A DNA stretch of 64,000 bases, taken from positions 32,001 through 96,000 of the forward strand of contig CATQHZ020000002.1 in NCBI GenBank assembly GCA_958296135.2, given 5' to 3'. This stretch comes from an uncultured Poribacteria bacterium. GTDB taxonomy: Bacteria; Poribacteria; WGA-4E; WGA-3G. This document shows positions 16,946 through 32,595 of this stretch, one piece after another (within the stretch, counting starts at the first letter, position 1; each line of letters starts with the position of its first letter). The notes beneath the pieces were generated by a model. The model was not told the DNA's origin. It did no database searches and worked only from the letters and a program-made list of their open reading frames with translations. Both the position numbers and the translations under genes were made by a program.

Positions 16946-16965
16946 TTTTTTCAAGATATCAAGTT

Positions 16966-17789: not shown

Positions 17790-17814
17790 GATATGACCTC
17801 CATGATCCTTTGGA

Positions 17815-18060
17815 TCAATACGTATGACGTTTCATTGTTCCTTGAATACCTTGAGATTTTCTACGCTTATTTCGGCATTCTTCCCAATGAATCGCCCGTT
17901 GTAAATGATATATTACGCATTCGTTCTCGTAACATGGTAATACCTCATTCAAATATCTAACTCTATCAAGAGTTTCTTGAATTACATCTTCTACTCGAAG
18001 TCCCTTCCGTTCAACTTTATTCCAGTCAGTTAAGTTTTGTTCAGCAAGTTTTTTATTCAT
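17815..18060 (-). CDS. Tad1-like anti-defence signal-sponge protein
   Basis: GLRVEDVIQETLDRV..PCYENECVIYHLQRAIHW...R..R..QGIQGT follows the Tad1 C-terminal pattern (G..ED..DR..REN..AL.W..R...R....GT) as recalled; not verified by search. Confidence 0.6.
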   Translation of the reverse strand: MNKKLAEQNLTDWNKVERKGLRVEDVIQETLDRVRYLNEVLPCYENECVIYHLQRAIHWEECRNKRRKSQGIQGTMKRHTY

Positions 18061-18478: not shown

Positions 18479-18501
18479 TATTTTGCTCCTTTTTGTTCCT
18501 T

Positions 18502-18544
18502 TATATTATTAAAATATTAAATTTTCAAGGGCATTTAAATCCAA
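18502..18544 (-). promoter_or_regulatory. Class II repeated promoter-like element, copy 1 of 5
   Basis: Minus strand TTGGATTTAAA-N5-TTGAAAATTTAATATTTTAATAATATA; same element at 41631, 47224, 53452 and 61661. Confidence 0.75.
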
Positions 18545-18971
18545 ATAAATAAATATTTAATATTGAAAATATATTTCTGGTCGTTTAAATCCAAGCGACC
18601 AATATTTTTTATTGAAATGTTTTCAATTGGCGATTTAAATCCAATAAAATGTTTCATTGAAAAAAGTTGAAAAATTTGTTTGCAAAAATTTGGGATCCTG
18701 GTTTATATTATACAAGTAAATGTTTTTCGTCGGATATATCAAGATTGAATTAGATATATTGGATTGATCTCAAAAAGTTGATTTAGGATTTTTACAGGCA
18801 AATTACTAACCGGATTAGGAGTCCCACGTTTTCAAATAGGATTATAACAACATCATCAATGGCAGATGTCTGATCCAACAGCCCATGTTATTGATCTTGA
18901 TTAACATCTTGATTGTAAGGATCATAACCCTGATGGATGTTAGACAATCGATCCCTGTTAACAAAAAATAA

Positions 18972-18995
18972 AGGACCGGAATCCGCTCCGGCCCT
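18972..18995 (-). terminator. GCGGAU-loop hairpin with U-tract closing the island
   Basis: AGGGCCGGA-GCGGAT-TCCGGTCCT followed by TTATTTTTTG on the minus strand. Confidence 0.65.
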
Positions 18996-19027
18996 CTACT
19001 CTGATCGTTATGATCAATCACTCCCTG

Positions 19028-19525
19028 TTAGCAGACTATGGTCACCTCCTGATCTTCGCCGAACAACACCTCCCTGATGATCATGCCAGCCATCTCGATA
19101 TGATAGCCAACAACCTTGTCAGACTCATAATAGCAACAGGGCTTGATGATCCCTAAGAACTGAAGCTGATTGATCGCACAATCCATCGCCTGATAATAAG
19201 TCGGGAGATTCGGATCGACCTTATCATCAAAGTCCTTGATTGTATATCGACATAACCGGTTAAGATCCCGATCATCCCTGTCGGTCGCCTTGATCAACTC
19301 CTCCTCTAGTTCGCGCGGGCTGACCAGATCGGATCCTAATTTAGTCACCGCCTGGACGATATATCCCACAAGATCGGTTGGATTTTTCACATCCCTGATC
19401 CAGTGGGGGAGCTCATCTATCAATGTTGCCGCTTGATCCGCTTTGATGATCGCATTGACGATCCGCTGATCTTCGGTCACAATTATCAACTCGTTGCTCT
19501 TGTGATCAAATATTGGGGTTGTCAT
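19028..19525 (-). CDS. Island family A, winged-helix-like protein
   Basis: C-terminal AINQLQFLGII..GYHIEMAGMIIREVLF is shared with 19608, 24319, 25904 and 29426. Confidence 0.6.
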   Translation of the reverse strand: MTTPIFDHKSNELIIVTEDQRIVNAIIKADQAATLIDELPHWIRDVKNPTDLVGYIVQAVTKLGSDLVSPRELEEELIKATDRDDRDLNRLCRYTIKDFDDKVDPNLPTYYQAMDCAINQLQFLGIIKPCCYYESDKVVGYHIEMAGMIIREVLFGEDQEVTIVC

Positions 19526-19607
19526 TATATTCTCCTGTCGGACTCTAAATTTTAGGGCTTGATTGGGAGAGGATCAACATCCGCGCTGATCCCCTCCGAC
19601 ATCATGA

Positions 19608-20141
19608 TTAGGCTCTTATTGTGACCTCTTGAGCTGTCCCAAAGGACAACTCCTTGAGGACACGGCCAGCTATCAGGAGCCTGACGCCTGTCGCCTCATA
19701 TCGATAGCGATCATGGGGGACAGGATCGGATAGCTCCTCAAAATCAGTCCTGATCAACTCCTGGATATCAAGCAAGGATAGTCCGTGCAAGACAGCCTGA
19801 TCGATCGGATCATCATAGATCTGAGGTTCCTCATATAGATCCTCAAGATCTTGGGACGCCAACTGGGATAGCAGATCCATTCGACCCTGATAGCGAGCCT
19901 CAAGATCAGCCTTGATCTCATCGACGGTGACAAGATCCTGATCGCTTTGGAGGACAACGCTTGTTAGAACGTCATGGAACAGCTCCGGATTGATCATCGC
20001 AGCCACCGTTGTGGGATCTGCAACATCCTCAATGTTTTTGACATCAAACTCATCAACGCTGTTGACGGTGACGAGTCTATTGCTGTTGGGAGGGCTGATC
20101 CTCATTTGAAAGAGAGGATCAACATTGATTTGATAAGACAT
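19608..20141 (-). CDS. Island family A, winged-helix-like protein
   Basis: Start moved to MSYQINVD (AGGAG RBS) because the longer track ORF runs through a promoter and hairpin; C-terminal AGRVLKELSFG. Confidence 0.65.
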   Translation of the reverse strand: MSYQINVDPLFQMRISPPNSNRLVTVNSVDEFDVKNIEDVADPTTVAAMINPELFHDVLTSVVLQSDQDLVTVDEIKADLEARYQGRMDLLSQLASQDLEDLYEEPQIYDDPIDQAVLHGLSLLDIQELIRTDFEELSDPVPHDRYRYEATGVRLLIAGRVLKELSFGTAQEVTIRA

Positions 20142-20251
20142 TATATACTCCTGCTTGATTGGATCTTTATGATCCTTTATTGATTTGTTTGATCTATCAT
20201 ATGTTGGATCAATTATTTGATCCGTCAGGAGAGCGACTCCTTGCCGCCCCC

Positions 20252-20301
20252 CTCCTATATATAATATAGGCGATCGACCGTTGATTTCAGATCGAACATC
20301 C
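20252..20301 (-). promoter_or_regulatory. Class I repeated promoter, copy 1 of 16
   Basis: Slightly diverged match to the 50-bp minus-strand consensus GG(A/T)TGTC(T/C)GATCTGATAAC-N14-TATATTATATATAGGAG. Confidence 0.75.
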
Positions 20302-20385
20302 AATTTTTTTTGGAGCGGACATCCGATCCAGCTGATTGTGATGAGAGGACCGGATCCGCCCGATCCCCTCAACAGCTTGATGATC

Positions 20386-20721
20386 TTAAGCAAGGACATG
20401 ATCGATCCAATTATGAACCCAGCGGACATATTGACGCCGCCAGACCTCAATACGCAATCCGTAATGGTTGCCAACGGTGGGATCCTGATCATATATGCGA
20501 CGCTGGGAGTTGATCGCAGACTCAATATCAGCTCTGAGTTTGCCCATAAACAACCAGACCTCAAGATCCGATCTGAACTTGATCACATATCGCAATCTGA
20601 ACAGATCTTTTTTTAGCGACCGGCAGCCGCTTTTGATCCACTGGTTATCAGACTCTATCATCTCGGTGTGGAGCTGCTCGATCTGCTCCTCGATCGGTTT
20701 GACAACATTTTTGATCGACAT
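20386..20721 (-). CDS. Island family C, small helical protein
   Basis: Start at MSIKNVVKP behind GAGGA; amphipathic helices resembling the two halves of 20838..21512. Confidence 0.6.
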   Translation of the reverse strand: MSIKNVVKPIEEQIEQLHTEMIESDNQWIKSGCRSLKKDLFRLRYVIKFRSDLEVWLFMGKLRADIESAINSQRRIYDQDPTVGNHYGLRIEVWRRQYVRWVHNWIDHVLA

Positions 20722-20837
20722 TATATAATCCTCTATTGGCTCAATTATTATTGAACCGTCTTGATTTGTGGGCAAGGGACCGGATCCGCTCCGATCCCAT
20801 CAGCCCGATTGATTTTTATTGAACAGCTTGTCTCAAT

Positions 20838-21512
20838 CTATAGATCCTCTTGTCCTGTAAGGACATCTTTGAGTCGACTTAGATCAGCAATCCGTTGGCG
20901 TTCTAGCTTCTCATCCGTCTGATCGCACTCCTTGATCCAATTGATCCGTTGATCGATAACAACGACTGCTCGATCTGCGTTCCGGTTCATATTGATGTCG
21001 GCGTACAATCTGCTTAGATCGTCAATCCGCGTCTGGACCGCCCAATCATCATAGCTGTCGGGATCTATCGCATCAAGATCCTGGATCAGCCCCTCATATC
21101 GAGCGTGGATTGCTCCAATATATTTATCGGTGAACATTTTTTTGATCTCCTCGTTGATTGTGACGACGGGACCGGATCCGCCCGATCCATCATCATCTGT
21201 TAGCAAGATCGATCTCGCCTTGTTAAGATTATCGATCCGCTCCTGTTTGTGCTCATCATCAGGGACCAGTCGCCTGATCGTCCTCAACAGTTGATCGACT
21301 CGCTCAACCGTCCTTGTCGGATTATCATCGACATGGACATGATATTGGATCCGCGACAGATCCTTGATTTGATCCCTTAGGATCCGGCATGTGAACAACG
21401 ACGGGACCGATGTTTGCTCGATCCCATCAAGATCGGTGTTGAGATCATCGATCATGACCTCAATTGCCTTATATGCTTGTCGGACATTTGGGCTAACAAA
21501 TTTGATTGTCAA
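20838..21512 (-). CDS. Island family C, two helical domains fused through a hairpin
   Basis: TTG start behind GAGGA; the internal GSGGSGP linker is the translated hairpin; a second RBS and ATG (MFTDKY) lie inside. Confidence 0.6.
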   Translation of the reverse strand: MTIKFVSPNVRQAYKAIEVMIDDLNTDLDGIEQTSVPSLFTCRILRDQIKDLSRIQYHVHVDDNPTRTVERVDQLLRTIRRLVPDDEHKQERIDNLNKARSILLTDDDGSGGSGPVVTINEEIKKMFTDKYIGAIHARYEGLIQDLDAIDPDSYDDWAVQTRIDDLSRLYADINMNRNADRAVVVIDQRINWIKECDQTDEKLERQRIADLSRLKDVLTGQEDL

Positions 21513-21622
21513 TTTTTTATCCTCATTGATTGGATCTTTATGATCCTTTATTGATTGATCTGATCTATCATATGTTGGATCAATTATTTGATCCGTCTGG
21601 GAGCCGCTCATTGCCGCCCCCC

Positions 21623-21672
21623 CTCCTATATATAATATAGGCGATCGGAGCCTGATATCAGATCAGACATCC
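21623..21672 (-). promoter_or_regulatory. Class I promoter, copy 2
   Basis: Matches the 50-bp consensus. Confidence 0.8.
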
Positions 21673-21779
21673 AAAAAAGTGGGATCAATTATTTGATCCA
21701 TCATTTGGGTTCAACATCTATCAGGCTGATTGTGACGAGAGGACCGGATCCGCCCGATCCCCTCAACAGCTTGATGATC

Positions 21780-22439
21780 TTAGGCATCGACCTGATAATG
21801 ATCTTTTAGGATCTGCTTGAGGCGGACTATATGATCCTCGCTGTCCTTAATTTGCTGCCGGATCATGTCCTCAACGCTCAATCCTGTTGTTTTAGCGACG
21901 ACATCATCGATTGTTGCTGTCACAACCTCTGCTGTTGCCGGTTTGACATCCTGAGCCGCGATTGGTTCAGGGACATCAACTCTGATCGCTTCGACAATCG
22001 CATGGATTGGAGCCTTGACATCAACTCTATGATCGCGAGCTTTGATCATGATGTTAAGGACCTCGACACAACGTGGAGTGCAATATCTCTCGCTGGCTTG
22101 ATCGAGCCCGCCATCAATATAGCTCCAAAGTCCGGTGACCGGATCTTTGTCGATCCAACCCCGTCCCATGCCCTTGTCACAACTCCAGATCCTTTTGACC
22201 ATCCGGAGCGGGCTGTTGGGATAGCCACCGGTCTGATTGACGACATGATCATGAACCGGATCGGTTAGCTGCTGCATATCATGGAGCAGATCGCGGAGAG
22301 CAATCGGGCTCCCGTCGCTCGGCATGGACGCCAACATTGCGATATGGACTGTCATCCGCTCTGTTGTTCTGCCGAGGATCAGCAGATCGCTATTATTGAG
22401 GACCGGAGACGCATTGGGTTCAAACATTTGATTGTTCAA
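21780..22439 (-). CDS. Island family B protein (winged-helix-like N-terminus, C-terminal coiled coil)
   Basis: GRGW motif shared with 25063; C-terminal LSVEDMIRQQIKDSEDHIVRLKQILKDHYQ shared with 22655. Confidence 0.6.
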   Translation of the reverse strand: MNNQMFEPNASPVLNNSDLLILGRTTERMTVHIAMLASMPSDGSPIALRDLLHDMQQLTDPVHDHVVNQTGGYPNSPLRMVKRIWSCDKGMGRGWIDKDPVTGLWSYIDGGLDQASERYCTPRCVEVLNIMIKARDHRVDVKAPIHAIVEAIRVDVPEPIAAQDVKPATAEVVTATIDDVVAKTTGLSVEDMIRQQIKDSEDHIVRLKQILKDHYQVDA

Positions 22440-22521
22440 TTTATTTCTCCTGTTGGATCTTATGATCCGTCTTGATTGAGTTGATCAATCATATTATTTT
22501 GGGGAGCCAACCCATCGTCGG

Positions 22522-22571
22522 CTCCTATATATAATATAACGCATTTGGCCTTGATATCAGATCAGACATCC
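22522..22571 (-). promoter_or_regulatory. Class I promoter, copy 3
   Basis: Consensus match, followed by the leader hairpin GGAGCCGACGATGGGTTGGCTCC. Confidence 0.8.
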
Positions 22572-22654
22572 AAAAAATTTTGGCTTTAGACATCCAACCA
22601 ATTTGATGTTGGGAGGGGACCGGCATCCGCGCTGATCCCCTCCGGCTGTTGATT

Positions 22655-23230
22655 TTAAGCAACATCCTGATAATGATTTTTTAAGATCTGCTCCAGTCGA
22701 TCAATATAATCATGCGAGCTTTGGATCTGCTGCCTGATTATAGACTCTAGACTCAGATCTGTTGTCGCCTTGACATCAGGCTTGACCTCTTTGTCCACAA
22801 CAATCGGATCAATGACCTCATCCTGCTCTTGATCGCTATCATTTTGATCCTTGACTTTGTTAAGGACATCCATAAATTGCTCCAGATCCACACCATGATA
22901 GCCCAAATTGCTTTCAACATAGCGTCGGATCTCAACAATGGACGCATCGGTCGCAATCCAGCGGCCAGATTGACATTTGATCCACTGTTTTGCGGACGAC
23001 CACACGGATGTGATCCCAGCGAACTGGTTCTTAGATTTATATTGAGTTTCAAGGAGGTGATTGATCGGGATCAACAGCTCCTGGATAGCAGTCCATATAT
23101 CAGATCTGAACGCTTGATTATCATTATTGATCATGATGTCCAAAGCAACAGCCTGCATCGCGGGACCGATCTTGGTGTGATTTAAGATCATCACATCGTC
23201 GGTTGTCAAAACTCTTTCAGGTGCGAACAT
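22655..23230 (-). CDS. Island family B protein
   Basis: C-terminal LSLESIIRQQIQSSHDYIDRLEQILKNHYQ is paralogous to 21780..22439. Confidence 0.65.
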   Translation of the reverse strand: MFAPERVLTTDDVMILNHTKIGPAMQAVALDIMINNDNQAFRSDIWTAIQELLIPINHLLETQYKSKNQFAGITSVWSSAKQWIKCQSGRWIATDASIVEIRRYVESNLGYHGVDLEQFMDVLNKVKDQNDSDQEQDEVIDPIVVDKEVKPDVKATTDLSLESIIRQQIQSSHDYIDRLEQILKNHYQDVA

Positions 23231-23321
23231 TTTATATACTCCATTAGCGGATAACTTACGCTATCCTATTTGATTGCGATGGGAGGACCGGCATCCGCGC
23301 CAGCCCTCCATCCGGTTAGCA

Positions 23322-23693
23322 TTAAATATCAATTTCGCCTGTCAATATTTCAACAACATAGCGCAGATCCGCCTCAAGATCCGGATATTGACCGTCATCC
23401 GTCCAGCGGCTATAGACGACGCTGATCAGCCTGATTGTCTTGACGCGATCCTTATAGACTGTCAAATGACTCAAGACGCGGCTCAGGACCTCAACCCGAT
23501 CGGTTAGCCGATCATAGACGCCCATCTGTTTGACCGTCATATCATCGATGTTGTCCGTCATGGGTTCCAGCTCGTCCTCGATCTGTTCCAATTGAGTGAT
23601 CATCGCACCGATGGCGAAGTCGACTCTAACGACAGGATCTTGTTGATCGATCAGATCCAAGATCGGCGTTTGATCTATCTTTGCGGTTGTCAT
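23322..23693 (-). CDS. Island family C helical protein
   Basis: End-to-end paralog of 23887..24252 (DQTPILD / DQTTILD, RVD.AI, QYPDL, ILTG). Confidence 0.7.
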   Translation of the reverse strand: MTTAKIDQTPILDLIDQQDPVVRVDFAIGAMITQLEQIEDELEPMTDNIDDMTVKQMGVYDRLTDRVEVLSRVLSHLTVYKDRVKTIRLISVVYSRWTDDGQYPDLEADLRYVVEILTGEIDI

Positions 23694-23755
23694 TTTTATT
23701 TATCCCCTTGTTGAGTTGATCCAAACAATTATTGGGAGCCGCTCATTGCCGCCCC

Positions 23756-23805
23756 CTCCTATATATAATATAACGCATTTGGCCTTGTTATCAGATCAGA
23801 CATCC
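23756..23805 (-). promoter_or_regulatory. Class I promoter, copy 4
   Basis: Consensus match. Confidence 0.8.
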
Positions 23806-23886
23806 AAAAAATTTTGGATCCAGACATCCGACAGCCTGATCGGTTGGGAGAGGACCGGCATCCGCGCCGATCCCCTCAACTGATTA

Positions 23887-24252
23887 TTAAATAATTTCAA
23901 AATTGCCTGTCAATATATCTCTGACATAATTGATGTCGAACACCAGATCCGGATATTGATCCTCCCAAAATCCGTAGGTTGTATCAATCATCTTGACGGT
24001 TTTATCAGGATCCTTATAGATCCTAATATAATTCAAGACTCGACTCAACATCTCAATCAGAGCTGTTTGAGCGTCTAGCGACCGTTGTAATCCTAGAGTC
24101 ATATCAGGATGCTTGTCGACAAACACCTCCAGATCGTTCTCTCTTTCCTCTAATGTTGGCTCTAACGTTCTGATGGCGAGATCGACTCTAAATTCCGCAT
24201 CTGTTTGCTCAAGCCGATCCAATATTGTTGTTTGATCTAATCTGACTGTCAT
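23887..24252 (-). CDS. Island family C helical protein
   Basis: Paralog of 23322..23693. Confidence 0.7.
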   Translation of the reverse strand: MTVRLDQTTILDRLEQTDAEFRVDLAIRTLEPTLEERENDLEVFVDKHPDMTLGLQRSLDAQTALIEMLSRVLNYIRIYKDPDKTVKMIDTTYGFWEDQYPDLVFDINYVRDILTGNFEII

Positions 24253-24318
24253 TTTTTATTTATCCTTATTGATTGTGGACAAGGGACCGGATCCGCTCCG
24301 ATCCCTATCCGGTTATTA

Positions 24319-24846
24319 TTAAGCATCCACGCCACGGTTGGCTCTAACGGTCGCCATATGATCGCTCCCAAACGCCAACTCCTTGAGGACTCTGCCCACA
24401 AGAGTCAGCTTATATTGGGCTTGATCAAGTTCGCAAGTCGGATCAACCTCATTGATTAGATTTATATCAACAAGCTGCTCCAGAGTGGATCCAATCGACT
24501 CCTCGATAACTCGCTCCATCATTGGGATGTCAAAAATATCGACCACCCGATCTAAGCTGTCAATCAGAGCCTCCTGATCGTCAAGATCAAGCCGTCCAAA
24601 CCGAGCCTCGACATCCGCGTCGATCTCGTCACGGCTAACAGGATCCTGATCGCTTTGGGCAATCGATCCCAGAACGATCTCATAAAGATCCTCTTGATTG
24701 CGAAGGGACTCAACACTCATGGGAGTGCAGACATCCTCAATATCCTCGATGTCGCTGACATCCAGATCTGTGACCGTAATATATCGACCTTGATCTGCGA
24801 TGACGACTGTCCTTGTCTCATTTTTGCGATCAAATTTGATTGCCAT
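24319..24846 (-). CDS. Island family A, winged-helix-like protein
   Basis: Start MAIKFD behind GGAG; shares QSDQD.V..DEI.AD.EAR and GRVLKEL.FG with 19608. Confidence 0.65.
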   Translation of the reverse strand: MAIKFDRKNETRTVVIADQGRYITVTDLDVSDIEDIEDVCTPMSVESLRNQEDLYEIVLGSIAQSDQDPVSRDEIDADVEARFGRLDLDDQEALIDSLDRVVDIFDIPMMERVIEESIGSTLEQLVDINLINEVDPTCELDQAQYKLTLVGRVLKELAFGSDHMATVRANRGVDA

Positions 24847-24909
24847 TATATACTCCATCTTGATTTGTTTGATCCAATCATCTCAATTTGGGAGCCAACC
24901 CATCGTCGG

Positions 24910-24959
24910 CTCCTATATATAATATAACGCATTTGGCCCTGTTATCAGATCAGACATCC
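24910..24959 (-). promoter_or_regulatory. Class I promoter, copy 5
   Basis: Consensus match with leader hairpin. Confidence 0.8.
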
Positions 24960-25062
24960 AAAAAAGTGGGATCAATTATTTGATCCATCATTTGGGTTCT
25001 GACATCCGACAGCCTGATTGTCTTGGAGAGGACCGGATCCGCCCGATCCCCTCCGATCATTG

Positions 25063-25581
25063 TTATTCAGATGCATACTTTGATATGATCTGCTCCAACT
25101 GCGTAAAGAGTTGATCAATCCTCTTTTTAGATTTCTCCATAGGACTGCCAGTACTGTCAATAACATCAACGGTTGATAGATCCTCTACTTCTTTTGTGAC
25201 AATTTCTTCAACAACATCGTTGTTATTATATCCATAATCGATGTTATCAAAGAACATCAACCCAAGATCGAAATCCGCTTCAATCTTAGCCTGTTCGATT
25301 GCTCCATCATTGAATGATAGCATGCCGTTAATACCATCGGTTTGACGATCGAGCCAACCCCTGCCGTTCCCATTATCATATCCATAGAACTGAGCAAGCG
25401 ATCCGATCCGATCGATCATACGACCAGTCAACGTGTTGTCGACTATCAACAGCTCCAGATTTGAATCTAAAACCGACTCGATTTCTCTCATCAATTCGCA
25501 CTTGCGGCGAACGCCATCCCGCTCTAGGATAGCGATCCATAACCACTTGGCGGCGTCTCTTTCTCTAACACGGATTGTCAT
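25063..25581 (-). CDS. Island family B protein
   Basis: GNGRGWLDR..DGAIEQA resembles GMGRGWIDK..DGGLDQA of 21780. Confidence 0.6.
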   Translation of the reverse strand: MTIRVRERDAAKWLWIAILERDGVRRKCELMREIESVLDSNLELLIVDNTLTGRMIDRIGSLAQFYGYDNGNGRGWLDRQTDGINGMLSFNDGAIEQAKIEADFDLGLMFFDNIDYGYNNNDVVEEIVTKEVEDLSTVDVIDSTGSPMEKSKKRIDQLFTQLEQIISKYASE

Positions 25582-25645
25582 TTTTTATTTATCCTCTTGT
25601 TGCGTTGATCCAATCATCTCAATTTGGGAACCAACCCATCGTCGG

Positions 25646-25695
25646 CTCCTATATATAATATAACGCATTTGGCCCTGTTATCAGATCGGACAACC
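25646..25695 (-). promoter_or_regulatory. Class I promoter, copy 6
   Basis: Consensus match. Confidence 0.8.
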
Positions 25696-25727
25696 AAAAA
25701 ATTTTGGTTCCGACATCCATCAGGACC

Positions 25728-25826
25728 TCAGACCTCATAACCGAGCAGATAAAGAAATATGCTCACAATGATAATGAAAGTCAAATAGATCCCGATATTC
25801 ATTAACAATCTTTTATATGTGTCCAT
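25728..25826 (-). CDS. 32-aa membrane peptide
   Basis: Not in the track; MDTYKRLLMNIGIYLTFIIIVSIFLYLLGYEV*, AAGG RBS. Confidence 0.45.
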   Translation of the reverse strand: MDTYKRLLMNIGIYLTFIIIVSIFLYLLGYEV

Positions 25827-25903
25827 AAAATCAACCTTTGATATGTCTCCATATGAACAAGAAAGGAGAGCTAGCATCCGCGCCAGCCCTCCTAACATCA
25901 ATC

Positions 25904-26356
25904 CTAGTTGTCAAACAGCAAATCCAATATGATGTGGCCAACCTTTGTCGGCTTGACTCCTTGTTTATTACAACGATGGATGACTCCCATAAGTATCATA
26001 TCATGGACGACATCATAAAACGCTCGATCGAACGCGCTTCTCCTTCGAACCTTGATATCTTGATCATCATCAGGCTGATATGGTTCAAACGATCTGGCGG
26101 TATAATGCTTTAGATCAGATATATGGATCCAATCAAGAGGTCCAAGTTGACTCAACTCCTCACATAGATGGCGTCGGAGCCTCAGATCCTTGAAATCCTT
26201 AAGGACCTCCACGTTGCATAAATATTGCAAATCATTGAACTGATCATCCGTCAATCCGCTGGCGGTGACCGTTTTGACATTATCATTGATTGTGATGGTT
26301 ATCGCTACGCTATGTTCAAATTGGACATCCATGCTATTGAACCTCCGATCCATCAA
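25904..26356 (-). CDS. Island family A, Mrr N-terminal-like winged-helix protein
   Basis: SAFDRAFYDVVHDMILMGVIHR..GVKPTKVGHIIL resembles the Mrr_N winged-helix pattern; start probably at MDVQF. Confidence 0.6.
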   Translation of the reverse strand: MMDRRFNSMDVQFEHSVAITITINDNVKTVTASGLTDDQFNDLQYLCNVEVLKDFKDLRLRRHLCEELSQLGPLDWIHISDLKHYTARSFEPYQPDDDQDIKVRRRSAFDRAFYDVVHDMILMGVIHRCNKQGVKPTKVGHIILDLLFDN

Positions 26357-26522
26357 AGCTGGCTTGAAAGCGGATCAAAACCAGCTTGAGTTGTTCTTCA
26401 AAAACATCCTGCTCGGCCTCTATCATATCAGACCAATGATCATGCTCCGGAACCCAGTCCTCAGGGCTTACATCAAGCTCCTGATTAGTCTCCACGTTAT
26501 CGGTTAACAATGCGGCTTTCAT
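26334..26522 (-). CDS. Small acidic protein
   Basis: 62 aa, AAGGAG RBS. Confidence 0.55.
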   Translation of the reverse strand: MKAALLTDNVETNQELDVSPEDWVPEHDHWSDMIEAEQDVFEEQLKLVLIRFQASFDGSEVQ

Positions 26523-26536
26523 ATTGTTCTCCTTGC

Positions 26537-26662
26537 CTATCTATTTATGTTGGATCTAAAAATCTGAGCAAAGACTCCAACTCCAATTACCATGATTTTG
26601 AACCCAACAGGAGCCTCTTGAAAGAGAAAGATTGCGATGGCGGCTGCTAAAGCTACAAACAT
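26537..26662 (-). CDS. 41-aa membrane peptide
   Basis: Not in the track; MFVALAAAIAIFLFQEAPVGFKIMVIGVGVFAQIFRSNINR*, GGAGG RBS. Confidence 0.5.
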   Translation of the reverse strand: MFVALAAAIAIFLFQEAPVGFKIMVIGVGVFAQIFRSNINR

Positions 26663-26744
26663 TGATTGATCCTCCAAAAAGACAGGTGGGGACCAAAGCC
26701 CCCACCTTGATTATGAGACATCCGCGTCTCATTAATGTTTGCAA

Positions 26745-27377
26745 CTAAGAGACCTGTTCTGCAACAACAGCCTTGACTCGTCCACGCCCATTCCGCTGGA
26801 CGCCAGACTCTTTCAAGTGAGCATTGATCGTCGCGGAGTTGATCCCTTTAAGCTCACCAATGGCGGATCCGCTCATTCCCTTTTCGGTGTGCAGATGACG
26901 CCATTCAGCCTTGTCATCATCGCTATGCTTCCGACGGTTGTTGCTCTTAGTCGGCAACAGCTTGACCGCATCCTCCCTCAACTTATCGAGTCCAGGAACA
27001 TCTGTCCCTCGCTCCTGAGCAAGGACACTCTTAACGATGTTGTCTTTGACGATCAGCCCCTTGAACTTGCCGTGGATCTTGAACGGGATAAGCTTAAGAT
27101 CCATGTTGTCGTTGACAAATTTTTCGTGGATGAACTTAACGACATCCGCTGCCAGCTCGACCTTGCGTCCACGAGCCTTCGGTTTGAGCAAGACAGCTGC
27201 CGACTCGGCGTTGAGCGGAGCAATCCATGTTTGCTTGTCCTCTTTCAACTTGAGGACCTTATTAAGTTCCGCCTGAACGTTGGCGGGGCTATCAGTCTCG
27301 GTGTTGAGTTCAATCGATCCGGCGGCAACGGTTCCGGCATCCGTCTGTTTGTAAAGATCAAATTTATATGCGGACAT
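26745..27377 (-). CDS. Family D HTH DNA-binding protein
   Basis: Start MSAYKF behind AAGGAG; C-terminal HTH GMSGSAIGELKGINSATINAHL; recent duplicate of 28432..29058. Confidence 0.75.
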   Translation of the reverse strand: MSAYKFDLYKQTDAGTVAAGSIELNTETDSPANVQAELNKVLKLKEDKQTWIAPLNAESAAVLLKPKARGRKVELAADVVKFIHEKFVNDNMDLKLIPFKIHGKFKGLIVKDNIVKSVLAQERGTDVPGLDKLREDAVKLLPTKSNNRRKHSDDDKAEWRHLHTEKGMSGSAIGELKGINSATINAHLKESGVQRNGRGRVKAVVAEQVS

Positions 27378-27461
27378 TATATAATCTCCTTGACGGCCTG
27401 ACACAATCAAGCCATAAATTAAAATTACAATCAATTTTTATAGGAGCCAACCCATCGTCGG

Positions 27462-27511
27462 CTCCTATATATAATATAGCCGACTCTTTGTTGTTATCAG
27501 ATCGGACAACC
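27462..27511 (-). promoter_or_regulatory. Class I promoter, copy 7
   Basis: Consensus match. Confidence 0.8.
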
Positions 27512-27597
27512 GATAAATTTTCGCTTTGGACAACCAACCGACCTTGGAGAGCTGACATCCGCGCCAGCTCTCCAATAATCGACATCCTGTCCTGATC

Positions 27598-28248
27598 TTA
27601 ATAATTATCAAGATCGCACTCCATCCATGCTTTGGGATTGAGCCTGCAAACTTGATTATATTTCGCATAAACAGCTTTGAGGAGTCCAACAACACCAATA
27701 ACGGTTTGCGGATCAACATTATGTTTTTGTGCGACCGGTTCAACCCATGCGGTATCGCCTTTTGCAGTCCGGAACCAAGAGTCCGGCGTCTGGTGAGCAA
27801 GGAACGACCGCCAGATATAATGGACCATAAAATCAATCAGCGGATATTCGACATAAACCCGATTGACATTTGCGATCCTGAACGGATGACTCATTTCGCC
27901 GCCGGCAGCCATGACTTGATCCAGATCAGGATCAGCCCACAACTCGCCCAGAAAGCCTTCAACATCGACCATTGGGATATCGATTACAATCCCGTTGGCC
28001 TCATTAATGACTTCAAGTTCGCAGAACTTAACGCTGACATCCATAGGATCGATCCCATAATCATCAACGATTTCGCCAAAGCCATCAAAGACTCCATTGA
28101 ACTCCATCCGGTTATCGGGCAACGCCAACCGACGGGGGAACCCAACCATAACCGAGAGCTTGTCGCTTGTCGCTTCAAAGACCTCGATTTTGGGAGTCAA
28201 TCTATAAGGAGGGACGATATCAACACCTTCAATCAAATTGCTTAACAT
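27598..28248 (-). CDS. Hypothetical protein
   Basis: Start at MLSNLIE behind AGGAG; the longer track ORF overlaps the promoter. Confidence 0.65.
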   Translation of the reverse strand: MLSNLIEGVDIVPPYRLTPKIEVFEATSDKLSVMVGFPRRLALPDNRMEFNGVFDGFGEIVDDYGIDPMDVSVKFCELEVINEANGIVIDIPMVDVEGFLGELWADPDLDQVMAAGGEMSHPFRIANVNRVYVEYPLIDFMVHYIWRSFLAHQTPDSWFRTAKGDTAWVEPVAQKHNVDPQTVIGVVGLLKAVYAKYNQVCRLNPKAWMECDLDNY

Positions 28249-28303
28249 TATATTGTCTCCTAAATTTACAATCATCCATAATTGGGAGCCAACCCATCGT
28301 CGG

Positions 28304-28354
28304 CTCCATATATATAATATAACGCATTTGGCCTTGTTATCAGATCGGACAACC
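28304..28354 (-). promoter_or_regulatory. Class I promoter, copy 8
   Basis: Consensus match. Confidence 0.8.
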
Positions 28355-28431
28355 AAAAAATTTTGGCTCCGACATCCAACCGGTGGGGACGAGCCGACAT
28401 CCGCGCCAGCTCGTCCTTTATTGTCATCCGG

Positions 28432-29058
28432 TTATGCATTTGTGACAACAGCCTTGACTCGTCCACGCCCATTCCGCTGGACGCCAGACTCTTTCAAGTG
28501 AGCATTGATCGTCGCGGAGTTGATTCCAAGCTCCTTACCGATCCTGAAGCCACTCCAACCGTCTTCGGTGTGCATGCGACGCCATTCAGCCTTGTCATCA
28601 TCGCTATACTTCCGACGATTGTTGCTCTGAGCCGGCAACAGCTTGACCGCTTGCTCCCTCAACTCATCGATGCCAGCAACATCCGTTCCACGTTCCTGAG
28701 CAAGGACACTCTTAACGATGTTGTCCTTAACCAACAGGCCCTCGAACTTATTATGAACCTTAAAGGGGATTACTTTAAGATCCACATTGTCGTTGACAAA
28801 TTTTTCGTGGATGAACTTAACGACATCCGGTTCCAGCTCGACTTTGCGTCCACCGACCTTCGGTTTGAGCAAAACTGCTGCTGTCTCGACGTTGAGTGCA
28901 GCAACATGATACTTTTTGTTCTTGTTCAGCTCGATCATATCATTAACAGCCGCCTGAACGATGGCGGGGCTATGAGTCTCGGTGCTAAGATCAACAGATC
29001 CGGCTGCGACCACTCCATCATCGTTGCGCTCATAAAGATCATATTTGACGGTTAACAT
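28432..29058 (-). CDS. Family D HTH DNA-binding protein
   Basis: Start MLTVKY; long stretches of nucleotide identity with 26745..27377. Confidence 0.75.
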   Translation of the reverse strand: MLTVKYDLYERNDDGVVAAGSVDLSTETHSPAIVQAAVNDMIELNKNKKYHVAALNVETAAVLLKPKVGGRKVELEPDVVKFIHEKFVNDNVDLKVIPFKVHNKFEGLLVKDNIVKSVLAQERGTDVAGIDELREQAVKLLPAQSNNRRKYSDDDKAEWRRMHTEDGWSGFRIGKELGINSATINAHLKESGVQRNGRGRVKAVVTNA

Positions 29059-29142
29059 TTTAAATGTCTCCTTGACGACTTGACGCATCAAGCCATAAAT
29101 TAAAATTACAATCAATTTTTATAGGAGCCAACCCATCGTCGG

Positions 29143-29192
29143 CTCCTATATATAATATAGCCGACTCTTTGTTGTTATCAGATCGGACAACC
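29143..29192 (-). promoter_or_regulatory. Class I promoter, copy 9
   Basis: Identical to copy 7. Confidence 0.8.
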
Positions 29193-29425
29193 GATAAATT
29201 TTCGCCCAAGACAACCAACCGACTGTGCGGTTTATTTTTTATCGCTGTTGCCAAGTACTACTATCCATATTGTTATTATATTCGCCATTACAGCGATTAA
29301 CATAAGATCTATGTTATCCATTTGATCATCCCTCCCTGATTGTGACTAATGGGACTGGATCCGCCCAACCCCATCAGCCCGTTCGCTCCATAAGATCCGA
29401 TCTAATGGATCAGATCTGATACGAT

Positions 29426-30058
29426 CTAATAGATATCTGTGATACCTTTAAGATCGAATACAATTGCCATCAGGACTCGTCCCGCCTTTGTGACAGAGAC
29501 TGCTCTTAGTTCTGTGTCATCCTGAACGCGGAGTCCATCAAAGAGCTGTTCCATGATAAACTGATCCATAAGGCTCCAGAACTGATATCCGACCACGTCT
29601 GGCATATGATCAATCTCGTCTGGACTCATTTGACCATCATCAAGGATGGCTTCCGCAGCCAATCCCCTCAGATTGTGTTGATCATCCTCATCATGACTCC
29701 AAACCAACTGGTTCAAGATATCTTGAGGGGTGACCACAATATTTTGATCAAATTCAACCGAGGATAGCAGAGCCTCTTCAAACTCAGACTCCCAAACTCC
29801 ATCGGGGTTGTCATCGATCATGCGTTTCATAGCAGCGACCGATATGTTAACGATCCGAGCTGCGTCCAAGACCTCATGATTGAAGCTGTTAACACGCCAC
29901 CGATCGGTTTTGGCAACATCTTCAACAAGATAATCTAAATATGTCCTTTCAACGGGATTGACATTGTGAACAACAACGGTTTTGATCGATCCATCATTGT
30001 TCTCGATTTTGATTTCAACACCCTGTCGCTCTTTGATCGACACATTTTTGATCGACAT
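29426..30058 (-). CDS. Island family A, winged-helix-like protein
   Basis: Start MSIKNVS; C-terminal VSVTKAGRVLMAIVF. Confidence 0.6.
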   Translation of the reverse strand: MSIKNVSIKERQGVEIKIENNDGSIKTVVVHNVNPVERTYLDYLVEDVAKTDRWRVNSFNHEVLDAARIVNISVAAMKRMIDDNPDGVWESEFEEALLSSVEFDQNIVVTPQDILNQLVWSHDEDDQHNLRGLAAEAILDDGQMSPDEIDHMPDVVGYQFWSLMDQFIMEQLFDGLRVQDDTELRAVSVTKAGRVLMAIVFDLKGITDIY

Positions 30059-30118
30059 TTTATATCTCCTCTTAATTGTCACAATCAATCAATTATTTGG
30101 GAGCCAACCCATCGTCGG

Positions 30119-30169
30119 CTCCATATATATAATATAGCCGACTCTTTGTTGTTATCAGATCAGACAACC
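30119..30169 (-). promoter_or_regulatory. Class I promoter, copy 10
   Basis: Consensus match. Confidence 0.8.
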
Positions 30170-30250
30170 GATAAATTTTCGCTTTGGACAACCAACCGAC
30201 CGTGAAGGGCTGACATCCGCGTCGGCCCTCCAATTTAGATCAAGATCTTG

Positions 30251-30661
30251 TTAATCCAATTTGTTTATGATATATTCAAGATCATCTTTTGTTATATTGT
30301 CTTTTCCAGATTTCTCCACGCCATCCAATCTGTTTTCAATATAATAGATCAACTCAGAACGAACATCCATCAGAGTCTCATAAAGCTTATCTTTAGCCTC
30401 GTTAAGCTTCTCCATAACAACGGCTTCCTCAAGCTCATACCACTCGATTGCGTCTGCCAACGTCGGCAGTTCCCAGACATCTGTTCTAGTGATATCGCAT
30501 ACAATCTCAGCCGCTTGTTTTGGACCATAATCAGCGTCCTGAGCCAACGGCGATTCAGGCTCCGCAAGAACCTCAATTGCTTGATGTTCCGCAACGATTT
30601 CATTATACTCTTGTTCAATCAACGCAACGTTGTATACTTCCTTATGAACTTGGCTTATCAT
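30251..30661 (-). CDS. Acidic helical hypothetical protein
   Basis: Start MISQVH coupled to the upstream stop (TAATG), GGAGGAG RBS. Confidence 0.6.
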   Translation of the reverse strand: MISQVHKEVYNVALIEQEYNEIVAEHQAIEVLAEPESPLAQDADYGPKQAAEIVCDITRTDVWELPTLADAIEWYELEEAVVMEKLNEAKDKLYETLMDVRSELIYYIENRLDGVEKSGKDNITKDDLEYIINKLD

Positions 30662-31056
30662 TATACTCCTCCCAAAAAGATGGTTGCCAACCAATCGACA
30701 ACTTTGATTGTGACATATGCTATTGTCGCCAAACCAATTACGGCTAGGCAGCCAGAACAACCATCATTATCATCATCGTCGTCGTCATCATTATTGTCAA
30801 CTTTTACTTTCAATTTGACGGTTGTATTTGTTCTAAGCACTTTGAGTGTGGTGACAAACGCCGCCTCGATAGCTTCAACATCATCAGGATCATGATCATC
30901 ATAGACTTCCTCAAAGATGTCCATAAAATCAGATCCAATATTTTCATAAACATCAGTTTGATCATCCGCGATCACGAACCTGAGTTCATAAGCTAATTCC
31001 TTTGGATCTACTCTATCGTCACCATTTAGATATGCGAACAAATTATACTTGATCAT
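30661..31056 (-). CDS. Acidic protein with poly-Asp tract and C-terminal membrane anchor
   Basis: NNDDDDDDDNDGCSGCLAVIGLATIAYVTI...; start MIKYNL. Confidence 0.6.
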   Translation of the reverse strand: MIKYNLFAYLNGDDRVDPKELAYELRFVIADDQTDVYENIGSDFMDIFEEVYDDHDPDDVEAIEAAFVTTLKVLRTNTTVKLKVKVDNNDDDDDDDNDGCSGCLAVIGLATIAYVTIKVVDWLATIFLGGV

Positions 31057-31118
31057 TTTATGGTCTCCAATAACATTAAATTTACAATCATTTTTTATAG
31101 GAACCAACCCAGCGTTGG

Positions 31119-31168
31119 CTCCTATATATAATATAGCCGACTCTTTGCTGTTATCAGATCAGACAACC
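31119..31168 (-). promoter_or_regulatory. Class I promoter, copy 11
   Basis: Consensus match. Confidence 0.8.
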
Positions 31169-31189
31169 GATAAATTTTTCGCTTGGCGA

Positions 31190-31540
31190 TCAATCCGACC
31201 GATTTGTTTTGACATCTGGGTTAAGTTCGATCATATGATTTACCCAGTTTACAAGTTCATCAATATCGGTTTTGGGTTCATATAAACTTTCGCTGATCTC
31301 CATATATGTCCATATGAATTTCTCCATAAGGTTACCCTGCGGATTTGGTCTTATGTTCTTTAATGTCCACAAATATAACCGGTATGGCATCCATTTAATC
31401 ATATGGCGAAACCGGTTACCAAACCGTGGTTCTTCAGACCCTTTCAACAAATTGCGGGAATCATTAAAAACTTTCCACTCTTCGATATCGATCAACGCTG
31501 CTCCATAATCTTCTTCAAGACTGTCTTTTAATTCAATCAT
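31190..31540 (-). CDS. Hypothetical protein
   Basis: 116 aa, AAGGAG RBS. Confidence 0.6.
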   Translation of the reverse strand: MIELKDSLEEDYGAALIDIEEWKVFNDSRNLLKGSEEPRFGNRFRHMIKWMPYRLYLWTLKNIRPNPQGNLMEKFIWTYMEISESLYEPKTDIDELVNWVNHMIELNPDVKTNRSD

Positions 31541-31551
31541 GATAGCTCCTT

Positions 31552-32595
31552 TTAACTGAAGATGATATCTTCATTTAAGTCCATATCATATGCTGCGAAC
31601 CGCATCTTGAGACAAGCTCGTTCAAAGATGTTAGTTATAGCGGCATTTGTATATGGTTTTTTGGTTAATTCTTGATCAGCAAGTTCTGCAGCAACCTCAG
31701 ATCCACTCAGATTACCGAGAAATCCTCTATTGTAATTCAGGACGACAAATCTCTCCATATCATCTAGATTGACGAGGAGGCTATCAAACAGATCTTTATA
31801 TTCAACTTCTGCGATATAGTCTCGCGCTCCGGTGAGCAAATTCGATCCATCGTCAGGAATTGTGTCCATAACCTCCGCATAATCAAATTCATCATCATTG
31901 ATAACTTGATTTAACGAAGATGTGTGCCTAATTTCAAGCATTGCTATTTCGGGAGCCTCTAACATTGTTGTTATGCCAATATCATACTCTTCAGATCTAA
32001 TATAGAATGCTAGTTCATCATAAGTCGCTTGTCGTTCTAATTGCCGTTCAAGCTCTTCCCTGATCCGTGGCAACTTAGCTTGTAGCATTTGCTTATGATA
32101 AGCTAATCGAACTACAGGACCACCATTTGTGACTAACTGCTGGATCTCGGTAAACATATGCATTTGAGCCCAGTAAGGAAAGTCTTTATCCTCATTGATT
32201 GTCCATTTTTCAAGAGCTGTATAGATCCCCAAAATTCCTTCATGGATTAGATCCACGCTATCAATTGGAAACCGTTCTGTTGCCCAACGGAATCGATTAG
32301 CAGTCTTGGCTGCCAACCTATATAGGAACAGGACAAGTAACTCTCGACTTTCCTCAGATCCCATCTGAGCGTCCATAGCCAGATCATTTATTGCTTTCGG
32401 ATCGATTACCGGATGTAACCACGGTTTGGAGTCCGCTCCACTATAACCCAAAAGCGTCCATAACAACTCATAAGGATTGTCATAATCTAACCTATTGAAA
32501 TCGGCGAAGTCCCGAATCTCCATATGATGTTTAGTCACATAATCAGGATCTAATTTTAACCAATTTCGCATGCCATCATAACCACCTTGAATCAT
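31552..32595 (-). CDS. Sigma-70 family RNA polymerase sigma factor
   Basis: Region 2 DLIHEGILGIYTALEKW..F.YWA, region 3 LERQATYDELA..SSLNQ, region 4 HTH. Confidence 0.85.
   Translation of the reverse strand: MIQGGYDGMRNWLKLDPDYVTKHHMEIRDFADFNRLDYDNPYELLWTLLGYSGADSKPWLHPVIDPKAINDLAMDAQMGSEESRELLVLFLYRLAAKTANRFRWATERFPIDSVDLIHEGILGIYTALEKWTINEDKDFPYWAQMHMFTEIQQLVTNGGPVVRLAYHKQMLQAKLPRIREELERQLERQATYDELAFYIRSEEYDIGITTMLEAPEIAMLEIRHTSSLNQVINDDEFDYAEVMDTIPDDGSNLLTGARDYIAEVEYKDLFDSLLVNLDDMERFVVLNYNRGFLGNLSGSEVAAELADQELTKKPYTNAAITNIFERACLKMRFAAYDMDLNEDIIFS

Follow-up and report, generated by a model that had tools for sequence, protein, structure and literature searches.

A GATC-saturated block of candidate early genes in a predicted tailed-phage genome co-assembled with a Poribacteria bacterium

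The tetranucleotide GATC recurs on average every 31 nt through some 6 kb of a contig that, judged by its gene content, is the ~144-kb genome of a tailed phage, and the excess persists when codon usage and protein sequence are held constant, in coding and non-coding DNA alike. The stretch analyzed here, called the window, comprises 64,000 nt, bases 32001-96000 of contig C2 (CATQHZ020000002.1; 143,886 bp, 36.8% G+C) in an assembly of four contigs (GCA_958296135.2) from an uncultured Poribacteria bacterium; all coordinates are window positions unless prefixed C1: or C2:. C2 encodes a prohead protease, a tail-tube protein, a DnaE-type polymerase, an NrS-1-type primase-polymerase, two sigma-70-family proteins, five DNA methylase genes, seven tRNAs and one tmRNA, and a greedy open reading frame (ORF) call places 165 of its 177 ORFs on the minus strand. 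An earlier note on this DNA had described a GATC-saturated island of about 12 kb (18850-31200) as a candidate methylation-coded early module. Exact counting bore out its hand counts for 19741-19980 (12 GATC), 23521-23760 (9) and 1-480 (1), and lowered that for 30001-30240 from about 4 to 3.

The abrupt start that had been placed near 18.85 kb is also real: 18479-18849 holds 2 GATC, after which the sites at 18872, 18893, 18920 and 18950 open a run of one GATC per ~30 nt. The extent of the island stands only in part, in that saturation characterizes a core (18850-25000, 31.9 GATC/kb), whereas the adjoining shoulder (25001-31200, 14.4/kb) reaches only ~1.8 times the phage average. The rest of the window has 6.3/kb to the left (118 GATC in 1-18849) and 8.3/kb to the right (271 in 31201-64000). 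Kilobase by kilobase, the counts run at 2-11 up to 19 kb, then 36, 36, 38, 26, 28 and 28 over 19-25 kb and 16, 15, 13, 9, 20 and 12 over 25-31 kb, stay near 12 to 35 kb, and vary between 2 and 17 thereafter; the gradient decays from the left border (43, 37 and 34/kb, down to 10-13/kb), and density thus climbs in the direction of transcription. Zero-order observed/expected (O/E) ratios are 8.4 for the core, 3.9 for the 25-31 kb part and 2.3 for the remaining window. Against 300 dinucleotide-preserving shuffles, the core holds 196 GATC vs 81.9±7.2 (2.4 times the mean, z 15.8, shuffle maximum 101) and 25001-31200 holds 89 vs 48.5±6.1 (z 6.6). A milder enrichment extends over the whole phage, in which GATC is the most enriched word: the O/E ratio of C2 is 2.4, and 108 background genes contain 727 GATC vs 550±16 (z 10.9).

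Because stop-free leaders inflate raw ORFs, 26 minus-strand genes of 19028-35454 were curated by reading starts and ribosome sites; 20 of them are island genes, nine in the core (4545 nt) and 11 in 25063-31056. The earlier note had allowed that the excess might vanish once composition was controlled and had proposed codon-preserving shuffles; with 1000 shuffles of each kind, it persists under both synonymous shuffling and codon permutation. The nine core genes contain 146 GATC vs 98.4±5.1 after within-gene synonymous shuffling (z 9.3, shuffle maximum 117) and 58.2±6.4 after codon permutation (z 13.7), and the 11 shoulder genes 66 vs 46.2±4.2 after shuffling (z 4.7). Recoding the core proteins with the codon usage of the 108 other phage genes gives an expectation of 58.1±4.7. 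In the synonymous-shuffle test GATC ranks first among all 256 tetranucleotides, the runner-up TCAA reaching a z of 5.9.

The codons of aspartate follow the same pattern. In the 20 island genes, all 115 Asp codons that precede a codon starting with C are GAT, vs a GAT:GAC ratio of 153:58 in other contexts, while Asn, His, Tyr, Phe and Cys before C, taken as controls, give odds ratios of 1.1-2.0 or have too few C-ending codons. In the core, 82 of the 83 GATC possible in the Asp/C frame are realized (Asp-Leu 30/30, Asp-Arg 10/11), together with 56 of 105 in the xxG/ATC frame and 8 of 12 in the xGA/TCx frame, the corresponding background fractions being 435/598, 77/1935 and 215/402; realized over potential GATC amounts to 0.59-0.63 in island bins vs 0.17-0.40 elsewhere. 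The skew of the proteins themselves toward GATC-permissive dipeptides, already pointed out in the earlier note, is likewise measurable (200 vs 144.9±8.1 in residue shuffles, z 6.8), with Asp at 11.7% vs 6.4% and Ile coded by ATC in 65% vs 11% of cases. Codon shuffles, the near-complete Asp/C frame and the bent proteins, along with the equal coding and non-coding densities and symmetric words described below, uphold the proposal that the force acts on the DNA itself: the GATC excess is imposed at the DNA level, not by the proteins.

As had been reported, the excess spans genes, leaders, promoters and hairpin stems alike. Non-coding DNA of the core carries 50 GATC in 1606 nt (31.1/kb), against 32.1/kb in its coding DNA, and the shoulder shows 15.6/kb and 14.0/kb, respectively. 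Since all 16 NGATCN flanks are present and no extension dominates, the bare tetranucleotide is the unit. The next tetranucleotide outliers come as reverse-complement pairs (TCAA/TTGA and ATTG/CAAT enriched, GAAT/ATTC depleted), and over 117 word pairs the z of a word and that of its reverse complement correlate with r 0.58 in the core and 0.32 in the background. This strand symmetry fits recognition of duplex DNA and disfavors an RNA- or translation-level cause, which would not be strand-symmetric. Spacing is slightly more even than random (coefficient of variation of the gaps 0.82, random 5th percentile 0.87). There may also be a second strand-symmetric word constraint, as the 20 island genes contain 3 GAATC and 1 GATTC (depleted, z -3.2 and -3.0) and 30 GAGTC and 11 GACTC (enriched, z +5.0 and +3.8).

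Base composition shifts over the island, with steps at both ends. Its G+C is 0.45-0.49 vs 0.34, and G+C at third codon positions (GC3) is 0.53 in the core, vs 0.21 in the rest of the phage and 0.62 on contig C1, the presumed host chromosome discussed below; the relative synonymous codon usage correlates with that of C1 at +0.38 in the core, +0.23 in the 25-31 kb part and -0.53 in the rest of the phage. Host-like codons in early phage genes are a pattern reported before (PMC5683454), and biased gene conversion or evasion of A/T-rich-DNA silencers would also produce a GC3 shift. Where the GC3 and GATC forces conflict, GATC always wins, as the Asp codons before C demonstrate, GAC rising to 27% of Asp codons elsewhere in the island.

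The genes of the island are organized in minus-strand units of a single plan, in which a 60-nt promoter (P1) is followed by a leader rich in GGATCAA words, a small gene and a 3' hairpin of 11-13 pairs with a conserved GCGGAU-type loop (folding free energy, dG, -22 to -27 kcal/mol; z -1.7 to -5.2); some units add a small GGATCAA...TTGATCC hairpin and a T-run. Scanning gives P1 the sigma-70-like consensus CTGATA-16-TATATT. There are 16 copies on C2, all within 20.2-51.9 kb of the window, and none on the other contigs; 11 of them, with conserved-loop hairpins, lie in 20.2-31.2 kb, and the core copies form a subtype of their own (families D11-D13). In 15 of the 16 aligned copies, the first base of the -35 hexamer falls within a GATC. 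The exceptional copy (48415; region 48340-48455) has GCTC at -35 and precedes a D12 methylase gene. In a second class, P2, a TGGATTTAAA box stands ahead of TTGAAA and a -10 region rich in A/T; its 14 full copies across C2 precede structural genes, tRNAs and the second D12 methylase gene. Because P1 drives a sigma-factor gene and P2 structural genes, P1 would be an early promoter and P2 a later, late-type one. The left border carries three tandem boxes, the last of which is a full P2 that serves gene 18053-18478 as well as the structural module. A promoter class of its own, ORFans and host-like codon usage do give the island the look of the early accessory module that the earlier note had suggested.

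The two Dam-family methylases attributed to this genome can be found as D12 (Dam-class, PF02086) genes on the contig (E 4e-24 and 7e-22). These enzymes may target GATC, and the GATC sites of the block would then be N6-methylated. C2 also encodes three methylases of family PF01555. One of the 72 PF01555 matches in the assembly, among the 3 on C2, is a methylase fused to an Mrr-like, inactive-restriction-endonuclease fold (57509-59062, minus strand) that could be a phage-borne restriction-modification enzyme; one further match lies on contig C3, and the 68 on C1, most of them in open frames of 280-1060 aa (e.g. C1:4722766-4723527 and C1:580012-580884), amount to an extraordinary expansion. A TGT/DpdA-like enzyme had also been ascribed to the phage, and here the earlier note finds no support: at E<=0.001, PF01702 gives three matches, all on C1 and none on C2, which sets this system apart from phage 7-deazaguanine (DpdA/TGT) modification. 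Besides the canonical tgt, C1 has two divergent TGT-family genes (C1:2717148-2717996 and C1:951545-952309) that may encode DpdA-type enzymes of the bacterium.

On C1, GATC is treated in the opposite way. This 5.01-Mb contig (54.4% G+C) has 6570 GATC sites (1.31/kb), an O/E ratio of 0.34 (zero-order) or 0.24 (Markov), and among the 16 four-base palindromes GATC is its most depleted in the Markov analysis; in its long ORFs, GAT is used for 36% of Asp before C vs 59% elsewhere. The phage and C1 are thus mirror images, with GATC the most enriched word in one and the most depleted palindrome in the other, and the density of the core is ~25 times that of the presumed host. A restriction-modification system of the host was considered as the cause of the purge and rejected, the D12 methylase of C1 having no recognizable nuclease neighbor. 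The phage avoids other palindromes (GTAC z -13, AGCT -7.7, TGCA -6.5, GGCC -5.4), and the island shuns GCGC (4 vs 18.5) and GGCC (6 vs 18.1), an avoidance that fits strong restriction pressure on phage DNA. Taken together, the facts call for a force on duplex DNA that favors GATC, peaks over the final 6 kb of the P1-driven region, is weaker over the whole phage, and runs opposite to that on the presumed host.

C1 is a Candidatus Poribacteria contig: over a stretch of 550 aa, its RpoB shares 84% identity with two Candidatus Poribacteria genomes and 52-71% with the remaining 78 loci returned, all but three of them titled Poribacteria. The co-assembled bacterium is most likely the host, because C2 and C1 were assembled together, both avoid GTAC, AGCT and GGCC, island codon usage leans to C1, and a domain common to phage and C1 proteins contains a 24-nt identity. 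The domain is a FlgD-Ig/sorting-type C-terminal one in a 565-aa phage protein (48461-50158, minus strand) with a homologue in a C1 protein, the 24 identical bases lying at C1:3774395-3774418, and it hints at a host link or at gene exchange. The phage is probably that of a sponge symbiont.

Variation among strains was examined with Logan contigs from the four runs found to carry this DNA, none of them listed as RNA and all of one sample and one study, possibly the sample of the assembly itself. Error-free contigs cover 18499-20184 (two runs), 18499-19795 (one run) and most units, breaking at the repeated cassettes, and, as they match the reference across the left junction without difference, this junction is not an assembly artefact. 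At least one co-occurring variant, ~90% identical in the flank (depth ~50 of ~110), parts from the reference at 18491 and 18544. Within the block, minor variants lack stretches of 102, 271 and 2483 nt, and a loose contig end by the P1 copy at 21627 has 4 GATC among 30 letters. The block thus varies between strains, with GATC dense in at least one alternative cassette too. Summed depth is 16-50 through most of the island vs ~110 in the flank, and the depth of error-free contigs falls from 47 (18499-20184) to 15 (20663-23785) before returning to 44 by 31-32 kb. The dip probably reflects a mixture of strains, a library effect being another possibility; it was rejected as a sign of modification, given that the GATC-dense contig 18499-20184 stands at full depth.

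Within the island, paralogue pairs share 4, 8 and 3 GATC sites vs 1.8, 1.0 and 0.8 expected, most sites being private, and maintenance is therefore accompanied by turnover. Relatives elsewhere are known as proteins from ENA/Logan assemblies, so that GATC can be compared with them indirectly, via dipeptides. The 224-aa protein has three relatives in ENA assemblies (two full-length at 66-73% identity and one fragment), which are mosaics of each other, and the 175-aa protein has five at 75-93% identity, two of which show an N-terminal read-through translating the leader and a GATC-bearing hairpin. All seven full-length relatives have an excess of GATC-permissive dipeptides (z 1.9-3.0), and in the 224-aa family the GATC-bearing dipeptides are identical at 37/54 vs 186/392 for other dipeptides. 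Pattern or tblastn searches of IMG/VR found nothing related to the DnaE-type polymerase, an island protein, the sigma-factor alignment A1 or the P1 pattern; A1 found nothing related in GTDB genomes or JGI metagenomes either, and among INPHARED phages the polymerase reached <60% identity at best and the island protein had no match. The A1 profile matches 19 of 176 same-phylum genomes at E<=1e-10, its own included; the other 18 (E 1e-11 to 1e-12) were set aside as lying at the level of cellular sigma factors and not as the phage.

The reading that we prefer, tentatively and with rather less than even confidence, is selection at the DNA level that packs the early module with Dam-type methylation sites, by which it is marked or tuned. 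The island would be a hyperplastic early-gene block, an array of small, mostly acidic ORFans ending at a late-type P2, in which duplex DNA has been pushed, beyond a host-like codon shift, to a GATC every ~31 bp. The Dam-class methylases of the phage itself, one expressed from P1 and the other from P2, would have GATC as their substrate, and dense N6-adenine methylation would form a cis-acting mark on the early module, labeling the DNA as phage in a host whose chromosome is purged of GATC. The GATC on the -35 hexamer of P1 could make early transcription depend on the methylation of the DNA, which would be full at entry and reduced to hemimethylation by replication, and would so provide a timer for early shut-off. 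The placement of GATC in the promoters and the exemption of the methylase promoter are the most specific pointer to such selection, although they amount to a single observation. As to what the mark would do, a timer or promoter switch is a doubtful proposition and a protective self-mark against host nucleases an unlikely one, while methylation-enhanced recombination of the variable block is improbable.

Several findings weigh against methylation-based selection. P1-driven genes outside the core have just 5-14 GATC/kb, so promoter class alone does not set density, and the 25-31 kb part keeps the GC3 of the island with half the GATC, which uncouples the composition signal from GATC. On the Dam-family model TIGR00571, which has a cut-off of 114.85 bits, the two D12 enzymes reach no more than 49.6 and 62.2 bits, and at E<=0.001 one of them matched one solved adenine methylase (1e-13), none named Dam. 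The SeqA, MutH/Sau3AI, DpnI and DpnII families (PF03925, PF02976, PF06044, PF04556) have no member in the 94.7%-complete assembly, and hence no known host GATC reader is in evidence that the decoy suggested in the earlier note could titrate. GATC shows no 10-11-nt helical phasing (normalized amplitude 0.08 at 10.5 nt vs 0.48 at 3 nt). In the 175-aa family, GATC-bearing dipeptides are conserved at 56/80 vs 503/770, not clearly above background. The case for C1 as host consists of co-assembly, similarity of codons and palindromes and one 24-nt identity, with no CRISPR spacer match (no spacer-like match from C1 arrays to C2 at E<0.01). Finally, a phage-wide enrichment and a strain-variable mosaic block are equally expected from a neutral drive.

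Such a drive is the nearest competitor, possible if on the unlikely side. A methylase-linked bias of mismatch repair or gene conversion would create and keep GATC, the density itself would be functionless, and the process would run fastest where the block recombines most among co-infecting relatives, GC3 rising through GC-biased conversion. A ratchet of this kind has been proposed for HIP1, a GATC-containing palindrome tied to GATC and CGATCG methylases (PMC4390886), and methylated adenine (m6A) reportedly promotes the assembly of RecA in proportion to the density of GATC (PMC12403123). The phage-wide excess, its decay as a gradient from the left border, the divergence of variants at that border with the drop in depth, the mosaic orthologues, local paralogue duplication and the repeated promoter-hairpin cassettes, which could serve as exchange substrates, are all as a drive would have them. 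It accounts poorly for the uncoupling of GC3 and GATC in the 25-31 kb part, for the victory of GATC over GC pressure in every conflict, and for an excess that ends within ~30 nt at the module border; moreover, GATC on the -35 element of all but the methylase promoter looks regulatory, and no MutH-type enzyme was found in the assembly.

Another explanation, an unlikely one, is mosaic import, in which recent recombination at P1/hairpin cassettes brought in the core from a relative with a genome richer in G+C and GATC. The steps in composition at the two ends and the strain variability would follow from it, as would the subtype of the core P1 copies and the presence in other assemblies of relatives 66-93% identical to core proteins. 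Promoters, hairpins and paralogue families are, however, common to the adjoining GATC-poorer DNA, so that a donor would have to be closely related and subject to the same pressures; GATC is enriched in the rest of the phage too, and the collections searched yielded no GATC-rich donor. Import would in any case account for the location of the island, not for the GATC density in the donor.

A signal in RNA, with GAUC in early transcripts targeted by a sequence-specific RNase or an RNA-binding regulator and its palindromy coincidental, is very unlikely. Phage T4 offers a model in RegB, which uses GGAG to end early expression, and nearly all of the GATC-dense DNA is transcribed, with density climbing along transcription. 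Against this stand the strand-symmetric word biases, the sites on the -35 elements of promoters and those past the terminal terminator (123 nt), and the depletion of GATC in host DNA; palindromes make up 16 of 256 tetranucleotides, and the one concerned is a classic target of methylases, two of which (D12) this genome encodes. That the excess is a by-product of amino-acid and codon composition, or an artefact of ligated GATC-cut fragments, is scarcely credible. Acidic, Asp/Ile-rich proteins with GAT and ATC codons do raise the expectation, composition alone (the Asp and Ile usage given above) yielding 58 GATC per 4.5 kb, but the observed count exceeds all 1000 synonymous shuffles and all 1000 codon permutations, non-coding DNA is equally dense, ORFs run unbroken through dozens of GATC with paralogues and orthologues aligning across them, so that neither frames nor homology break at GATC junctions as they would in an artefact, and error-free Logan contigs cross the region in three of the four runs (one sample) among the pieces listed.

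Clusters of GATC that are read via Dam methylation include E. coli oriC with SeqA, the pac site of phage P1 and the pIN promoter of IS10. With 11 GATC in 245 bp, oriC has a density of the same order as the block (12-13 per 240 nt), and the GATC within a promoter hexamer, in a genome with a Dam-class methylase, recalls Dam-sensitive promoters. The known Dam/SeqA clusters span 0.1-0.3 kb and have a known reader, whereas here 6 kb of coding DNA are involved, nine proteins are reshaped, homologues of SeqA, MutH and DpnI are missing, and methylation is something that we infer. Motif avoidance in phages is textbook knowledge, and restriction-site avoidance has reportedly been described for phage genomes; the block conforms to it for GCGC and GGCC and reverses its sign for GATC, saturation with a methylation motif having no such textbook standing. 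The block also resembles the early-vs-late pattern of phage codon usage, being host-like where the rest of the phage has A/T-ending codons and its own tRNAs, but codon adaptation explains GC3 and not GATC, whose excess survives recoding at fixed usage.

The closest relative among iterated words is the cyanobacterial highly iterated palindrome HIP1 (GCGATCGC), which is linked to methylases and for which a repair ratchet has been proposed (Elhai 2015, PMC4390886). Both are over-represented GATC-containing palindromes in coding and non-coding DNA, genome-wide. HIP1 is a chromosome-wide 8-mer, whereas the word here is a bare tetranucleotide in all 16 flanks, concentrated in one phage gene block and depleted in the presumed host. 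In organization, the block recalls the promoter-early stem-loop (PeSL) cassettes that mediate the shuffling of hyperplastic regions in T4-like phages (PMC4122927), with small ORFans flanked by a conserved composite of terminator and promoter, mosaic orthologues, and a region that may vary in gene content among close relatives. The variant contigs seen here diverge at 18491 and 18544 and, next to a cassette, at 21627. The likeness rests on cassettes and ORFans, T4 core genes not having been sought in C2, and neither a saturating methylation motif nor a large GC3 shift is reported there. The full-text literature searched, which did not include the supplementary motif-density tables of phage-methylome surveys (e.g. 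PMC10711547), describes no kilobase-scale GATC-saturated viral gene block. Known, then, are Dam-read GATC clusters, methylase-tied iterated palindromes and hyperplastic cassette regions; new are the combination of these ingredients, its scale and its mirror image in the host.

It is tempting to go further and suppose that a word purged by the host has been adopted as a private epigenetic code, with the early block near-continuously N6-methylated and its promoters switched by a state that replication erases; we regard this as conceivable, though a good way short of probable. If true, phage DNA, and above all its first-acting module, would be physically distinguishable from host DNA, and a virus would possess a genome-scale, sequence-encoded methylation device with no described counterpart. 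Should the sites be methylated and the mark read, viruses would be seen to have a novel means of timing or shielding the genes that they use first, and the many orphan Dam-class methylases of phages would gain a concrete role. Should repair or conversion drive be responsible, the block would be an unusually clean case of drive reshaping coding sequence in a recombination-prone region, localized in a manner that the debate on HIP1 lacks. The mirror image between phage and host makes the question testable with existing long-read sponge metagenomes.

Table 1. Features of the GATC-rich island and of related loci in the window
Feature	Position	Strand	Remarks
GATC-saturated core	18850-25000		196 GATC, 6151 nt
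Weaker shoulder, 11 small genes	25001-31200		89 GATC, GC3 0.48
Left border: three tandem TGGATTTAAA boxes	18534-18660	-	50 nt apart (18543-18643); P2 scan
GATC-dense tail past last terminator	18842-18964		4 GATC in 123 nt; read from sequence
Degenerate P1-like half-site	18862-18874	+	12-nt match to P1 upstream half, inverted, pointing into block
Hairpin and U-run closing array	18965-19000	-	dG -26.9, z -5.2
ORFan, 165 aa	19028-19525	-	pI 4.5, 34 GATC/kb
ORFan, 177 aa	19608-20141	-	pI 4.2, paralogue of 24319-24846
P1 copy	20248-20314	-	GATC on -35 hexamer, second GATC before -10
ORFan, 111 aa	20386-20721	-	basic
ORFan, 224 aa	20838-21512	-	TTG start, 43 GATC/kb
P1 copy	21619-21685	-
ORFan, 219 aa	21780-22439	-	paralogue of 22655-23230
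P1 copy	22518-22584	-
ORFan, 191 aa	22655-23230	-
ORFan, 123 aa	23322-23693	-	paralogue of 23887-24252
P1 copy	23752-23818	-
ORFan, 121 aa	23887-24252	-
ORFan, 175 aa	24319-24846	-	net charge -25
P1 copy	24906-24972	-	after small GGATCAA...TTGATCC hairpin and T-run terminator (24986-24969)
Six more P1 copies	25642-31181	-	25642, 27458, 28301, 29139, 30116, 31115
Predicted bipartite helix-turn-helix (HTH) DNA-binding protein, 210 aa	26745-27377	-
HTH paralogues of 26745-27377	28432-29058, 32757-33386, 33389-33985
Sigma-70-family protein behind P1	31552-32595	-	14 relatives, 53-86% identity, ENA/Logan assemblies
Five P1 copies outside island	~32693, 34483, 42660, 48415, 51899	-
Second sigma-70-family protein	34558-35454	-
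D12 (Dam-class) adenine methylase behind P1 with GCTC at -35	47552-48364	-
Second D12 (Dam-class) adenine methylase behind P2 (61702)	60781-61641	-

Of the large 3' hairpins, the one that closes the array (Table 1) alone has the form of a canonical intrinsic terminator, and the inverted half-site beyond it could be a decayed P1 copy or an antisense promoter. None of the 20 island proteins has a significant match in Pfam; of the 10 scanned against PHROGs, just two weak matches emerged, to unannotated families, and the ESM Atlas returned no usable match for island proteins. Most of them are acidic (isoelectric point, pI, 4.0-4.8; net charge -12 to -25), and the AlphaFold model of the 175-aa family has a pLDDT of 43.7. 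Their size, acidity and position suggest an anti-defense role, which is a guess.

The proteins that the earlier note had taken for winged-helix proteins turn out to be a bipartite HTH family of four members, two in the shoulder and two just outside. The family model (pLDDT 84.8) finds its best Foldseek matches in the bipartite HTH domains of SETMAR/mariner and POU proteins, at E 9e-3 or weaker, and the C-terminal module recurs 4-12 times in longer proteins elsewhere. These paralogues were considered as a GATC reader and rejected, their model bearing no likeness to SeqA, DpnI or MutH.

A search of 16-36 kb with Rfam returned a single match, to a plant microRNA family below threshold at 16505-16693, which was taken as chance. 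A terminal overlap was looked for on C2 and not found, a point that bears on any likeness to the T5-type first-step-transfer (pre-early) region, which enters first and lies at a genome end or terminal repeat. With a crude repeat finder, ~18 CRISPR-like repeat arrays of up to 46 repeats were seen on C1 (e.g. near 129286, 272100 and 4396602). The seven tRNAs of C2 (Pro, Val, Asn, Ser, Tyr, Leu and Arg) serve A/T-ending codons, one of them lying in the window (41147-41231), and the tmRNA at C2:113571-113916 has the tag EDNFEYALAA. Two giant open frames, of 4987 aa (C2:125876-140839) and 2257 aa (C2:119091-125864), occupy the upstream end of the single-strand gene array.

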